Below are positions 16,422 to 30,468 of a DNA stretch of 37,988 bases, piece after piece. Below the pieces are notes generated by a model. The model searched no databases and was not told the DNA's origin. It saw nothing but the letters and a program-made list of their open reading frames with translations. The position numbers and the translations under genes are program-made. Each line of letters opens with the position of its first letter. Positions within the stretch are counted from its first letter, which is position 1. The stretch lies in the IMG/VR virus record IMGVR_UViG_2737471821_000001, positions 1-37,988 of that record, one strand, 5' to 3'. Source of the DNA: a virus (Duplodnaviria > Heunggongvirae > Uroviricota > Caudoviricetes).

Positions 16422-17352
16422 AGAATTAGCCGGACAGCACAGTTCGCAGCTCTCGTCCGTTCTTAAATCCGCAGTTGAAACCATCTCGTCAGACCAGGAA
16501 ATCACGTTCAGGCTCTATGTCCGGCAGGTTCTGCCGCTGGATGGTTTTGTCTATTGGGTTAATGCGGAAATCATCAGTTGCGATGAACTGTGTCGTCTGA
16601 ATATTGAGTCACCAACTCGTCTGAAAATCAAAGGCAGCCTGCATCGTCAGGTTATTGCGATTCAGGACGAGTCTGTCTCGAAGGATGTGAACAACATTAT
16701 TTTCACGCCTGTTCAGCAGGTTGATGATTTTAATGTGGAAAATCCCGATGCGATCTATCTCGGTGAGTACGGCGGCGTCCAGTTCGCTTTTTCTCGAATG
16801 GAGAGCCGCTATCAGCAGTCGGGTATTTTTCATTATCGCGGCATGGCGATTTTGCCAACCATGCGTTCCCAGATTATCGACTGCGAGGAGGATATCAGCG
16901 ACGAGCAGATCATATCCAACAGCATCCCGATCTGGCTGCAAATGAAAGATGCCGCGACCGTGTATCCGTCTTACCTGGTACCGCAGAACCTTCGCCCTCC
17001 GTATATCGCGGTGGATGTTCGCAACAGTATTCCTTTGCAGATGGCTCCCGTTGTTTTCGGTGGTGAGCGATTCCAGCTCGTCCAGGATTCGGTTCGCCTG
17101 ACGCTTTACGGATTCAGCAACAAAATGGCGCTGGATCTTGTCGACTCGGTGGTGAACAGGGCGCTGGAGGAGGAAAAGTTTGGTGTAACCAATATTCCGG
17201 TGGTTCAGGACGCAAAGTCGGGACAGGTTGAAATCAACGCTCTGGCGAAGAAAAAGATTGTCGATTTTGACGTGAATTACTACCAGAGCACCGCCCGGGA
17301 AATATCCCGGCAGTTGATTGAAAAAGTCATTTGTAAATATGAGGTTAAATAA
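16408..17352 (+). CDS. putative virion structural protein
   Basis: 314-aa ORF overlapping both neighbours, directly upstream of the sheath-like gene. Confidence 0.4.
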   Translation: MPSLEELAGQHSSQLSSVLKSAVETISSDQEITFRLYVRQVLPLDGFVYWVNAEIISCDELCRLNIESPTRLKIKGSLHRQVIAIQDESVSKDVNNIIFTPVQQVDDFNVENPDAIYLGEYGGVQFAFSRMESRYQQSGIFHYRGMAILPTMRSQIIDCEEDISDEQIISNSIPIWLQMKDAATVYPSYLVPQNLRPPYIAVDVRNSIPLQMAPVVFGGERFQLVQDSVRLTLYGFSNKMALDLVDSVVNRALEEEKFGVTNIPVVQDAKSGQVEINALAKKKIVDFDVNYYQSTAREISRQLIEKVICKYEVK

Positions 17353-18689
17353 TGGGGTTTAATATCGTCACGGTGAATGTGTCCCAGACCATCGGGGCCA
17401 TACCCTCGAATCTGCAGCAGATGTCTGCGGTTCTCTCGTTTGGCTCCACGACTCATGAGCCGGGGAAGCCTGTATTACTCACCAGCAATCAGGATATTAA
17501 CGATCTGGTTAAAAATCCGATTGCTGCGTTGTCGGCGGCTGCCGCAGGAAAATCTGCGGCAAACGTCACCGTTACGATGACGCTTCCGGAAGGGAGCAAC
17601 ATCCGACGCGAAAACAGTTCTGAGGTGAAAATTGTTGTTTCCGGGTGTTCGCCCGACGCGTGGAATGGCGAATATACTGCTACCGTCACGGATGAAAAAA
17701 CACTGACCTGGACGATTGCTGATTCTCAGCTTTCCGGTTCGCCAGTGACACTGGGGCAGTTTTCCATTGTCGGCAGTGAAAATCTGGTGACGGCAGTAAA
17801 CACGTTTTTTGCCCAGGGAAATTCAGTTGGGATTTACCTGCTGGAGCTGGGAGTACAGAAAGGCGGGGTCAGTAAGGAAATCGCTGCACTGAAAGCTTAT
17901 ATGGAAGATCCGCTCCTGCGGTTTTATGCGTATCTGGTGCCGCAGCGGTGGGATGGTGACGCAGAATTTATCAGTCTGGCAAAACTCCACACCGCCAACG
18001 AAGCGATGCAGTATTTCTTCGTGCTGACGAAAACGCCGGACGACACGAATTACGTTTCGCCTTATGCCGGTATTAAGTCGGTTATTGCAACGGCGGATGA
18101 TACGTACCCGGCGACAAACGCGGCAGCAGCCGTAATGTGGAACTATGTTTCCGCATCACCTTCAGAAATCAACAAGGTGCCGCCGATGGCATTTCGTTAT
18201 CTACAGGCGGTAAACGCCCACAAGGGCAAAAATTCAATTCTGGTCACGATGACGAAGCAGAATATTAACTACGTCGACACGGGGGCTGAGGGGGGAATTT
18301 CCAACACGATTCTGGTGAAAGGCGTTACCAGTGACGGTAACGATATGACGTACTGGTATTCCGTGGACTGGGTGCAGATTAATGTCGATATGCAGCTCGC
18401 CAACACGGTGATCAACGGTAGCAATAACCCAATTAACCCGCTTTACTACAACCAGGACGGGATCGACCGTCTGCAGCAGGTCGCACAGGCGGTGTTCAAT
18501 ACGGGCGTATCTTACGGCCTGGTCAACGGTCAGCCTGTCGTCGATGCAGTGCCTTTCCGCCAGTATATCAACACTAATCCCAATGATTACGGTATCGGGC
18601 GTTATGCAGGCCTTTCGGCCTCCTATACGCCGATGCGCGGATTTGTCGAAATCATTTTTAACATCAATGTGACAATGCAGCTTTCGTGA
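17352..18689 (+). CDS. putative contractile tail sheath protein
   Basis: 445-aa ORF followed in order by a tube-sized gene, a frameshifted chaperone pair and the tape measure gene, the conserved myovirus arrangement. Confidence 0.5.
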   Translation: MGFNIVTVNVSQTIGAIPSNLQQMSAVLSFGSTTHEPGKPVLLTSNQDINDLVKNPIAALSAAAAGKSAANVTVTMTLPEGSNIRRENSSEVKIVVSGCSPDAWNGEYTATVTDEKTLTWTIADSQLSGSPVTLGQFSIVGSENLVTAVNTFFAQGNSVGIYLLELGVQKGGVSKEIAALKAYMEDPLLRFYAYLVPQRWDGDAEFISLAKLHTANEAMQYFFVLTKTPDDTNYVSPYAGIKSVIATADDTYPATNAAAAVMWNYVSASPSEINKVPPMAFRYLQAVNAHKGKNSILVTMTKQNINYVDTGAEGGISNTILVKGVTSDGNDMTYWYSVDWVQINVDMQLANTVINGSNNPINPLYYNQDGIDRLQQVAQAVFNTGVSYGLVNGQPVVDAVPFRQYINTNPNDYGIGRYAGLSASYTPMRGFVEIIFNINVTMQLS

Positions 18690-18700
18690 GGGACTGAACC

Positions 18701-28370: not shown

Positions 28371-29920
28371 TTCTTGGATTCGGAAATAACGTTGTTTCAG
28401 CACTGGCTGGTGATATTACGACGATTCAGACTGATATTCCGGTGATGCCGGGCACGGGAGCTAAATTTGCAAAATTGCTTTCTGCCGATTTTGAAAATAA
28501 ATCGAACGGGCAACGCGTCTATGCAAAAATTACGCTTACCGATAATAAAGAGTCTGCATTTGAGATTTGTCACCTGGTATCGGTAAGCGGTGATGTGCTG
28601 AAAGTCATTCGTGGGCAGGAAGGAACAACCGCGAAAGGTTGGTCCCTTAATGACGTTGTGGCTAACTTTGCCACGCGTGGATCGGAAAACTATTTCGTAC
28701 AGATAGCGCAGCTTCAGAGCGGTCATTATATTGCGGGTGTTACTGGTGGCACTGCAAACGCACTGACGCTGGAACTTCCCTCGACGTTTTTTGTTAATGG
28801 AGGTACAGATTGGACGCTACGAACTCCGATTATAGTTTTCCCCGTTCAGAACAATACCAACGCGGCGACACTTCAACTAACACTAGGCGGAAAGGTTCTT
28901 GGTACGTTCCCACTTTATAAGGGGAACAAGTCCGAGCTGGTAGCGAATGATATCATTAAGGGTATTCCTTTGATTTGCCTTCTTGATAGCGAGAAAAGCT
29001 ATTTCAGTGTGATAAACCCCGGCAATATCTATTCAGATTTTGATCTGCGATATGTAAAAAAATCTGGTGATTTGATGACCGGGGAGCTGAAAATACGTGG
29101 TGTTAATGCATTGAGGATTTTTAACGAGGCTTTTGGCCTTATTTTTCGCCGTTCTGAAGAGTGCCTGCACCTTATCCCTACTAGTGAAGGTCAGGGCGAG
29201 AATGGAGATATTGGTCCCCTGCGTCCGCTCACCATTAATTTGCGGACAGGAGAGATATCCATGTCGCATAAAGTGTCTGTTGGCGGTGGTTCTCAGGTCA
29301 ATGGTGCACTGGGTATCGGCGTTAAGAACGCGCTGGGCGGAAACTCAATTGCTTTCGGGGATAACGATACAGGTATAAAACAAAACGGCGACGGCATTCT
29401 GGATGTTTATGCGAATGGACAGCATGTATTTCGTTTCCAGAATGGTGTGGCGATAGCGTTAAAAAATATTCAGGCCGGAAATGCTAAAAAATTCACGTTA
29501 TCCAGCGCCAACAACTCCACGAAAAACGCAACGTTTAATTTATGGGGTAATTCATCCCGACCTGTAGTTGCAGAGCTTGGTGATGATTCCGGCTGGCATT
29601 TTTACAGCCAGAGAAATACCGATGGCAGTATCACATTCGCTGTAAACGGACAGATGACCCCATCAAACTATGGAAATTTCGATGCCCGTTATCAGCAGCG
29701 AAATGGCGGCGTGCAGGATGTGCGCTATGGTTCCGAAATGTATTACAAACCTGGCAGCAATGTAATCTCCTGGACATATCACGCTCCTGCGGGACACGGA
29801 TTGTCAGGGATATCGATATCGGATACTGGTAAAAATTCAGCGGATAACGTCAACGGCGTGTATTACCGACCGCTTCAGAAACTGATTAACGGCACCTGGT
29901 ATAACGTGGCGAGTGTTTAA
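28367..29920 (+). CDS. putative tail fibre protein
   Basis: 517-aa ORF between the baseplate genes and the Tfa gene; Gly/Asn/Thr-rich C-terminal half. ATGA overlap with the upstream gene. Confidence 0.55.
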   Translation: MILGFGNNVVSALAGDITTIQTDIPVMPGTGAKFAKLLSADFENKSNGQRVYAKITLTDNKESAFEICHLVSVSGDVLKVIRGQEGTTAKGWSLNDVVANFATRGSENYFVQIAQLQSGHYIAGVTGGTANALTLELPSTFFVNGGTDWTLRTPIIVFPVQNNTNAATLQLTLGGKVLGTFPLYKGNKSELVANDIIKGIPLICLLDSEKSYFSVINPGNIYSDFDLRYVKKSGDLMTGELKIRGVNALRIFNEAFGLIFRRSEECLHLIPTSEGQGENGDIGPLRPLTINLRTGEISMSHKVSVGGGSQVNGALGIGVKNALGGNSIAFGDNDTGIKQNGDGILDVYANGQHVFRFQNGVAIALKNIQAGNAKKFTLSSANNSTKNATFNLWGNSSRPVVAELGDDSGWHFYSQRNTDGSITFAVNGQMTPSNYGNFDARYQQRNGGVQDVRYGSEMYYKPGSNVISWTYHAPAGHGLSGISISDTGKNSADNVNGVYYRPLQKLINGTWYNVASV

Positions 29921-29922
29921 CA

Positions 29923-30468
29923 ATGTTGCATTTAAAAAATATTACTGCAGGCAATCCGAAAACCGCAGAACAATATCAGATGACAAAACAACATGGTATC
30001 ACCTGGCTTTTTTCGGAAGATGACAAAAACTGGTATGAAGAGCTGAAAAATTTTGCCAGTGACACCATAAAAATGGTTTACACCGGAGACGGGCGCGTGG
30101 TTTGGGTCGGTAAGGATGTGACAGGCATTGAACCCCGTAACGCCAGTGTTATTGAAGTTCCTGATATTACCGCTAACCGCCGTATTACCGTGCCTGGTTA
30201 CTGGTTTTACCGCGACGATAAATTTGTCTTCGACTACAAACTTAAAGCGGAAGATGAGCGCGATGCCCTGTTACAACGGGTCAGCATCATGACCAGCGAA
30301 TGGGAAAAAGACCTGCTGCTGGGATTAATCAGTGACGACGACAGGGAGAAGCTGAAAGCGTACCGCATTTACGCGAAATCGCTGCAGGCGATGGATTTCA
30401 GCACCATCACTGATAAAACCTCATATAACGCCATTGAATGGCCCGTCTCTCTGGAAGCCTCTTCCTGA
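29923..30468 (+). CDS. tail fibre assembly protein (Tfa family)
   Basis: 181-aa protein downstream of the fibre gene, with a Tfa-like C-terminal region (DERDALLQRVSIMTSEWEKDLLLGLISDDDREKLKAYRIYAKSLQAMDFS). Confidence 0.65.
   Translation: MLHLKNITAGNPKTAEQYQMTKQHGITWLFSEDDKNWYEELKNFASDTIKMVYTGDGRVVWVGKDVTGIEPRNASVIEVPDITANRRITVPGYWFYRDDKFVFDYKLKAEDERDALLQRVSIMTSEWEKDLLLGLISDDDREKLKAYRIYAKSLQAMDFSTITDKTSYNAIEWPVSLEASS

Follow-up and report, generated by a model that had tools for sequence, protein, structure and literature searches.

How a prophage with lambdoid early genes comes to carry a contractile, myovirus-type tail is the question raised by the stretch of virus DNA analysed here, IMG/VR record IMGVR_UViG_2737471821_000001 (positions 1 to 37,988, 37,988 nucleotides, hereafter the window). 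The first-pass annotation had taken the region 17352-30468 for a Mu/SfV/P2-like contractile-tail module in a Rac-type lambdoid prophage, and had seen in fragments of a side tail fibre just downstream a trace of module replacement by recombination. In our reading, to which we give a probability of about 90%, this late-operon tail module is native to a full-size temperate Escherichia coli phage of the Rac type and is the same as that of Rac-SA53; the copy here, at the Rac site, has since become defective. The module is as such ordinary and already known, the same phage having been sequenced and published in 2016; Rac-SA53 was reportedly described by Jobling in that year as an LT-IIa-converting full-length Rac prophage. 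Of the classic Rac element E. coli K-12 retains only a remnant.

The plus strand of 17352-30468 holds thirteen tail open reading frames (ORFs), with the coordinates already listed in the first-pass annotation and with stop and start codons that mostly abut or overlap. They run in the order sheath, tube, chaperone with a -1 frameshift, tape measure, a gene of tube-initiator size, plug, hub, spike, sheath-initiator-like gene, J-like wedge, I-like wedge, fibre and tail fibre assembly protein (Tfa). Counted from the gene immediately upstream, this order matches gp12-gp24 of the myophage Pam3 one to one, which reads terminator gp12, sheath gp13, tube gp14, tape measure protein (TMP), tube initiator gp17, plug gp18, hub gp19, spike gp20, sheath initiator gp21, wedge gp22/gp23 and fibre gp24 (PMC9942802). 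The features, with lengths in amino acids (aa) and expectation values (E), are as follows.

16408..17352, plus strand: conserved gene, 314 aa, candidate tail terminator/completion protein by position only; abuts the sheath gene
17352..18689, plus strand: tail sheath of the DUF3383 type, 445 aa; phrog_205 'tail sheath', E 1.3e-54
18701..19144, plus strand: candidate tail tube, 147 aa, GTG start, immediately following the sheath gene; phrog_6566, function unknown
19141..19758, plus strand: tail assembly chaperone, zero-frame product, 205 aa; phrog_11810
19521..19527, plus strand: slippery heptamer T_TTT_TTT at codon 128, predicted from the sequence to direct a programmed -1 frameshift
19527..19823, plus strand: -1 frame extension of the chaperone, 98 aa, ending on the tape-measure start; phrog_14324
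19820..21898, plus strand: tape measure, 691-692 aa, with a C-terminal region of lytic-transglycosylase type; phrog_7694 over the full length
21902..22570, plus strand: candidate tube initiator, 222 aa, baseplate-proximal, by position (Pam3 gp17); phrog_7750, function unknown
22567..22833, plus strand: candidate baseplate plug, 88 aa, in the position of Pam3 gp18; phrog_8737
22833..23840, plus strand: baseplate hub, 335 aa; phrog_196 'baseplate hub', E 4.7e-43
23840..24553, plus strand: candidate central spike, gpV-like, 237 aa, by position after the hub, as Mu gp45 and Pam3 gp20
24836..25183, plus strand: candidate sheath initiator, gp25/W-like, 115 aa; phrog_7986
26534..27760, plus strand: baseplate wedge, J/gp47-like, 408 aa; Pfam Baseplate_J at 32.3 bits (cut-off 21.1); phrog_6, E 4.8e-38
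27744..28370, plus strand: candidate second wedge, I-like, 208 aa, by position only; phrog_8212, function unknown
28367..29920, plus strand: tail fibre, 517 aa; phrog_25419 (N-terminal part), phrog_6859 and phrog_454 'tail fiber'
29923..30468, plus strand: Tfa, 181 aa; Caudo_TAP, E 6.4e-22; phrog_136, E 1.5e-57

Direct family scans identify five of the tail proteins, namely the 445-aa sheath, the 335-aa hub, the 408-aa J-like wedge, the 517-aa fibre and the 181-aa Caudo_TAP protein. Pfam and NCBIfam scans over all tail ORFs returned no match beyond Baseplate_J, Caudo_TAP and a weak gpV signal, and sequence searches of the PDB gave none for sheath, tube or hub singly, nor for sheath and tube profiles, including a tube profile of 87 sequences. 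Since these searches are otherwise silent, most genes of the module are labelled 'hypothetical' in RefSeq and GenBank.

The relatives of the module are best considered at two distances. Several E. coli chromosomes match the region at 100% identity, and at least 80% of it is present in 44 of 5,426 complete genomes. Close relatives in a set of 50,697 phage records are limited to Rac-SA53 (KU052037) and 'Actinobacillus' phage vB_Apl-pPE4 (PP818812, hereafter pPE4), with 91-96% DNA identity in aligned blocks that cover 70-82% of the region. Both share with the window the tail genes and their order, the head genes, the frameshift site, the attR core and the chromosomal site, and the sheath proteins are 97-99% identical; the differences lie in a cargo slot within the baseplate genes and in parts of the tape measure and fibre. 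The Pasteurellaceae host stated for pPE4 (PP818812.1) looks doubtful, as it shares 94% DNA identity with E. coli Rac-type prophages over the virion genes and 98.7% identity in the sheath protein.

At the greater distance, a tblastn search with the sheath found 14 phage records, comprising Rac-SA53, pPE4, five Yersinia vB_YenM phages, Klebsiella RothC, RothD and Chronis, Pantoea PdC23 (two records) and two partial matches; sheath identity in this search was 37-38% for the Yersinia, Klebsiella and Pantoea records. The phages of the Yersinia vB_YenM_06.16-1 group have contractile tails by electron microscopy (EM; PMC9224151), and their sheath orthologues are 42-43% identical to that of the window. 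The Klebsiella and Pantoea phages make up the ICTV family Felixviridae (PMC12451628), the structural core of which has been annotated by structural comparison with the 'minimal myophage' Pam3, the RothD core being described as containing a tail tube protein (PMC12629751). For each of the eleven tail proteins, sheath through I-like wedge, Yersinia vB_YenM_06.16-1 and RothD have a colinear orthologue, at 26-55% identity. Across the Yersinia group and the Felixviridae (RothC/RothD, vB_Kpn_Chronis, PdC23) the colinearity runs from scaffold/capsid to I-like wedge with matching gene sizes, and each head or tail gene still present in the window has a colinear orthologue (26-55%) in the Felixviridae core, RothD gp1-gp24, of which terL and portal are deleted here. 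These phages differ from the window in their much more distant sequence, in having other fibres and in having no cargo slot, the W-like and J-like genes overlapping. The Yersinia 06.16-1 phages are temperate. The main text of the KlebPhaCol paper and the ICTV summary do not mention Rac and do not place Rac-type phages among the Felixviridae. The sheath, hub and J-wedge families, the sheath-like fold matches described below and the EM-contractile Yersinia phages with a colinear orthologous module all bear out the view that this is a contractile-tail module.

Several points weigh against this reading. The best Foldseek matches in the PDB for an AlphaFold2 model of the sheath, built on a 28-sequence alignment, are the sheaths of E217, phi812, AFP and Pa193 (E 2e-4 to 1.5e-3), but the model is poor, with TM-scores of 0.2-0.3 for the matches, and these carry little weight because the predicted local distance difference test (pLDDT) is only 57.7. 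For the W-like protein, gp25-family structures are among the top fold hits and are mixed with unrelated folds scoring equally. The assignments of tube, 222-aa protein, I-like protein and spike rest on position or on sub-threshold matches; profile comparison of the individual ORFs sustained the sheath, hub, Baseplate_J, fibre and Tfa families and left tube, gpV and gpI with positional or sub-threshold support. Reports of particles were not found for this prophage or for Rac-SA53, and the literature on pPE4 or on the tail type of full-length Rac yielded nothing usable.

Pressed furthest, such doubts would make the sheath call wrong and turn the ORFs into a non-contractile siphovirus tail, for which one may cite the poor sheath model and the lack of any Pfam or NCBIfam sheath or tube match among the window proteins. 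We find this barely credible. It is already contradicted by the phrog_205 sheath match at 1e-54 and the Pfam family PF11863/DUF3383 carried by the sheath's relatives, by sheath structures being the best fold matches, by the presence of a J-type wedge and a hub, and by the EM-contractile tails of phages with an orthologous module.

The contractile tail of the window is accompanied by a head of the same descent. The remaining head and neck genes are likewise colinear with those of Yersinia 06.16-1 and RothD (31-45% identity), and as the head is of one lineage with the tail, the virion module as a whole is native to the Rac phage type. The early genes are lambdoid, comprising repressor, Cro-like, CII-like, O-like initiator, DnaC-like loader, NinB and Q. 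As the window begins within the immunity region, the left arm with intR/recE/recT falls outside it. Towards the right end, remnants of a second fibre set precede the attachment site, and a deletion junction lies upstream of the tail:

12322..12323: deletion junction relative to Rac-SA53, joining the 3' end of holin-1 to the DUF2213/rac43 gene
30492-30630 and 30640-30856, plus strand: remnants of a second stf-like fibre gene, matching Rac-SA53 tail3 (a 1061-aa stf-like fibre) in its 5' part
30874-31194, plus strand: remnant of the tfa-like partner, DUF4376, matching the 3' part of Rac-SA53 tail4
33564..33589, plus strand: Rac-site attR core, identical in 26/26 positions to the right att site annotated in Rac-SA53

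The attR core is followed by uspF, ompN and nifJ; the match together with these neighbours makes the element a prophage at the ttcA/Rac site, and the description as a Rac-type prophage with lambdoid early genes holds. Between the window and Rac-SA53, DNA identity is 91-96% for head and tail, 83-91% for ydaW, lygF and the Q region, and 75% for the divergent immunity region.

The side tail fibre fragments at 30492-31194 are real, as had been claimed, and begin with a typical lambdoid Stf N-terminal domain; RefSeq labels them 'prophage tail fiber N-terminal domain' and DUF4376. They may be viewed as the scar left when a siphovirus-tailed lambdoid Rac ancestor had its tail swapped for a Mu/SfV/P2-type myovirus module, and that view also draws on the pairing of lambdoid early genes with virion genes that are not lambda-like, two arms that must have joined at some deep time. 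Both intact relatives speak against it: directly after the same myovirus fibre/Tfa pair, Rac-SA53 and pPE4 have a complete 1061-aa stf-like fibre and tfa, to which the fragments map at 83-92% identity to tail3/tail4 with two internal deletions (L008 1039->1543 and 1760->4297). Since the pair is intact in the relatives, the fragments represent decay of a second native fibre set and not a tail-swap scar, and the proposed module replacement loses its basis. A swap is also hard to reconcile with head and neck genes that are of the tail's own lineage, with the lambdoid-type nin/RusA genes that the Yersinia phage has as well, and with a tail in which one of nine comparable components shares a Mu/SfV family. 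The relatives examined show neither the same early and head genes joined to a lambda-type tail (gpV, gpH, gpJ) nor junctions flanking 17352 and 30468. We therefore hold a swap to be improbable, and return to a native module with a second, decayed fibre set.

The same copy has suffered a larger loss. At 12322/12323 about 6.9 kb of Rac-SA53 (L001 22535-29479) is absent, comprising holin-2, endolysin, the LT-IIa genes, terS, terL, portal, rac42 and the beginning of the DUF2213 gene. Without terminase, portal, endolysin and one of its holins this copy can form no infectious particle; it is defective, and its tail genes are intact passengers. The junction is not contiguous in any of the 5,426 complete E. 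coli genomes, and the deletion is for that reason considered recent. The closest chromosome, VG48B2, with identical tail DNA, has a different deletion.

One may ask whether the host has kept such a prophage as a domesticated tailocin, for headless contractile particles that kill competitors: none of the thirteen tail ORFs is broken, terminase, portal and lysis genes are deleted, and several strains have the tail DNA at 100% identity. Capsid, scaffold-like and neck genes nevertheless persist, and the endolysin and second holin, which would be required for release, are gone. The uniqueness of the junction, and so its recent date, and the different deletion in VG48B2 fit no better, and among E. 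coli genomes head modules (81) and the W-J region (about 100) are about equally common, with no sign of selective retention of tails. The tailocin reading was rejected on the retained capsid genes, the lost endolysin and a deletion unique to this copy, and we rate it as very unlikely, below a tail swap. In K-12 the Rac element is without tail genes. Two records labelled 'DH5alpha' (CP026085, CM135829) carry a Rac-type W-J baseplate region at 95.7% identity, and their strain labels may be wrong.

With the module established as native to the Rac phage type, its likeness to known tails can be defined more closely. The name 'Mu/SfV/P2-like' stands for gene order as far as Mu is concerned, the order being Mu-like as well as Pam3-like, and does not stand for family, in which the J-like wedge alone is shared with Mu/SfV, nor for the P2 order, which is unmatched. 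The synteny comparison with Mu and SfV shows that the order after the tape measure parallels both: one gene in Mu as against two in the window, then hub, spike, small wedge/initiator, J-like, I-like, fibre and Tfa. The J-like wedge and Mu gp47 both belong to phrog_6 and share Pfam Baseplate_J. This is the only one of nine comparable components with a common PHROG family. Between Mu/SfV and the window the families differ for sheath (phrog_165 and phrog_205), tube (phrog_185 and phrog_6566), chaperone (phrog_508 and phrog_11810), hub (phrog_177 and phrog_196), small wedge (phrog_180 and phrog_7986) and I-like protein (phrog_203 and phrog_8212). The window has no counterpart of the Mu N-type 'DNA circulation' protein, and its sheath is of the DUF3383 type. 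In hhalign comparisons of window, Yersinia and RothD alignments with Mu and SfV alignments, which have limited power at 2-3 sequences per profile, the 408-aa J-like wedge matched Mu gp47 with a probability of 60% (E 9e-5) and every other pair remained below 2%. By these sequence comparisons, no relationship of the window to Mu/SfV was detected that is closer than the one common to all contractile tails. SfV, too, pairs a contractile tail with a non-Mu early region.

In P2 the V-W-J-I-H-G operon is separate from, and upstream of, FI-FII-E-T-U-D. The likeness to P2, judged from gene order and family scans, consists of the Baseplate_J wedge, the weak gpV-like signal in the 237-aa protein and a frameshifted chaperone ahead of the tape measure. 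It ends there, as the baseplate genes of the window follow the tape measure, and sheath, tube, gpU and gpD families of the P2 type were not detected in the family scans. The authors of the Pam3 study liken their tail design to Mu (PMC9942802). Pam3 itself showed no significant sequence similarity to any window protein and differs in host and lifestyle.

The chaperone gene deserves separate attention. A programmed -1 frameshift signal is, as far as the sequence can tell, well supported. The heptamer stands at codon 127/128 also in Rac-SA53, pPE4, Yersinia vB_YenM_06.16-1 and Klebsiella RothD, the two distant ones being about 40% identical, and in all five loci compared the -1 extension is 98-107 aa long and ends at the tape-measure start. 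Between the window and Yersinia 06.16-1 and RothD the extension is conserved (z about 8), whereas the zero-frame tail of the chaperone is serine/threonine-rich and weakly conserved (z 0.6-4.9); the zero-frame orthologues are 34% identical in L004 and L005 (RothD). Between the slippery site and the zero-frame stop downstream of it there are 76 sense codons, a geometry conserved in the distant relatives, and the products would therefore be two chaperone forms with alternative C-terminal domains of 76 and 98 aa, not a short and a long form. A slip site 76 codons before the stop seems unusually far upstream for such signals. The tape measure that follows matches phrog_2276 (TMP) and the transglycosylase families phrog_873 and phrog_7182 over its C-terminal 180 or so residues (496-674), and is labelled 'lytic transglycosylase' in Rac-SA53, pPE4 and RefSeq.

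The roles of the smaller proteins are suggested by position together with weak structural or profile hints. The 314-aa protein upstream of the sheath belongs to phrog_6359 (E 5e-159), a family of unknown function, and L004, L005 (RothD) and L009 have orthologues of it (37-39% identity) at the corresponding place; by analogy it would fill the slot of Pam3 gp12. The 147-aa protein is a positional candidate for the tail tube. Its family is compact, with 244 clusters among 1.84 billion representatives, all of about 145 aa, and its N-terminus is conserved in orthologues from residue 1. The 222-aa protein, with orthologues at 39% identity, is a candidate tube initiator by analogy with Pam3; an hhalign comparison with the tube family, testing this idea, gave no signal, and no relation to Mu N was detectable (hhalign probability 1.8%). 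For the 88-aa candidate plug the RothD orthologue matches Pfam Pam3_gp18 at 21.8 bits (E 2.6e-4), below the cut-off of 24.2, and it is in this orthologue only that the plug family is matched. The candidate spike matches TIGR01644 phage_P2_V at 18 bits (E 0.0017), below the cut-off of 46.75, and is labelled 'phage baseplate protein' or bppV in RefSeq and GenBank. The I-like protein, a candidate second wedge, has orthologues at 35-38% identity, and no relation to Mu gp48 was detected by hhalign or PHROG. In RothD the J-like wedge (L005 18117-19535) contains an inserted Pfam E1_FCCH domain (ubiquitin-activating enzyme FCCH; E 2.8e-14), for which the 408-aa window protein had no match in the Pfam scan. 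In its 3' part the fibre gene shares 90% DNA identity with the phiP27 fibre.

If the order of assembly follows Pam3, the module would specify a contractile tail of simple build, on the 'minimal baseplate' plan of Pam3/Mu. The hub and spike would nucleate the baseplate, the plug and the protein of tube-initiator size would dock onto them, and the J-like and I-like wedges with the gp25-like sheath initiator would complete it. The tape measure, with its C-terminal cell-wall-cutting domain, would be held by the chaperone in the two forms made through the T_TTT_TTT frameshift, and on the baseplate platform the 147-aa tube would polymerise first and the 445-aa sheath after it. Receptor binding would fall to the fibre with its Tfa chaperone.

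Between the spike gene and the J-like gene the operon is less compact and holds the following further features.

24591..24624: G+C-rich hairpin of 14 bp in the spike/W-like interval, from a scan for terminator-like sites
24707..24839, plus strand: hydrophobic ORF of 44 aa, equivalent to rac58, its stop overlapping the W-like start (ATGA)
25195..26525, plus strand: moron cassette of 1.33 kb, with promoter-like site, gene and intrinsic terminator, between the W-like stop at 25183 and the J-like start at 26534
25275-25304: sigma-70-like promoter of the cassette
25333-26493: gene of the cassette, encoding a 386-aa HsdR-N/DUF450 nuclease-like protein
26497-26524: intrinsic terminator of the cassette

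In Rac-SA53 and pPE4 a 45-aa rac58 is annotated at the place of the 44-aa ORF. Polymerase modified by Q would presumably read through the internal terminators.

The 386-aa protein matches Pfam HSDR_N (E 5.6e-14) and phrog_4225 'endonuclease' (E 5e-149), had no PADLOC match, and is encoded by a gene with a G+C content of 0.375. Its family is common in prophages of many phyla. The cargo slot was surveyed in the E. coli collection, where the nuclease-like gene occupies it in about 25 of 100 genomes. The other 70 or so, like Rac-SA53 and pPE4, carry there the antirepressor gene ant, with or without lprI (an LprI-type lysozyme inhibitor), and hypothetical genes on the opposite strand. These alternatives replace one another at sharp boundaries, and the phages Yersinia 06.16-1 and RothD are without the slot. 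A search for related loci with the J-like protein among contigs of one genome per species returned a single Kluyvera locus. One may speculate that the W-J interval of Rac-type phages is a dedicated exchange slot for self-transcribed accessory genes, and that the nuclease-like protein serves as an exclusion or defence factor expressed in the lysogen; we put this forward tentatively, as a possibility on the doubtful side.

Other accessory genes lie outside the tail operon. Between the fibre remnants and attR, at 31444-33236, is a RosmerTA defence pair, made up of RmrT (229 aa, PDLC03935, E 1e-59) and RmrA (368 aa, helix-turn-helix and Peptidase_M78, PDLC03949, E 1e-142), which is absent at this place in Rac-SA53. 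Between the Q antiterminator and the lysis regions, 10002-11533 holds a cluster of three tRNA genes, tRNA-Met (CAU; tRNA-Ile in RefSeq), tRNA-Arg(UCU) and tRNA-Gly(UCC), preceded at 9142-9861 by a low-G+C gene for a protein of 239 aa.

The value of these results lies in annotation, as genes that are mostly 'hypothetical' in RefSeq and GenBank together make up an entire contractile tail, present in about 1-2% of complete E. coli genomes. In its full-size form Rac is a temperate phage under lambdoid regulation that has a myovirus virion, and its virion module is distantly related to those of the recently named Felixviridae and the Yersinia 06.16-1 phages. More useful leads than the tail itself are the frameshift at such a distance from the zero-frame stop, RosmerTA at the end of the prophage, and the cargo slot in the baseplate operon, which, if the tentative view of it is true, would be a hotspot of defence and counter-defence inside that operon.

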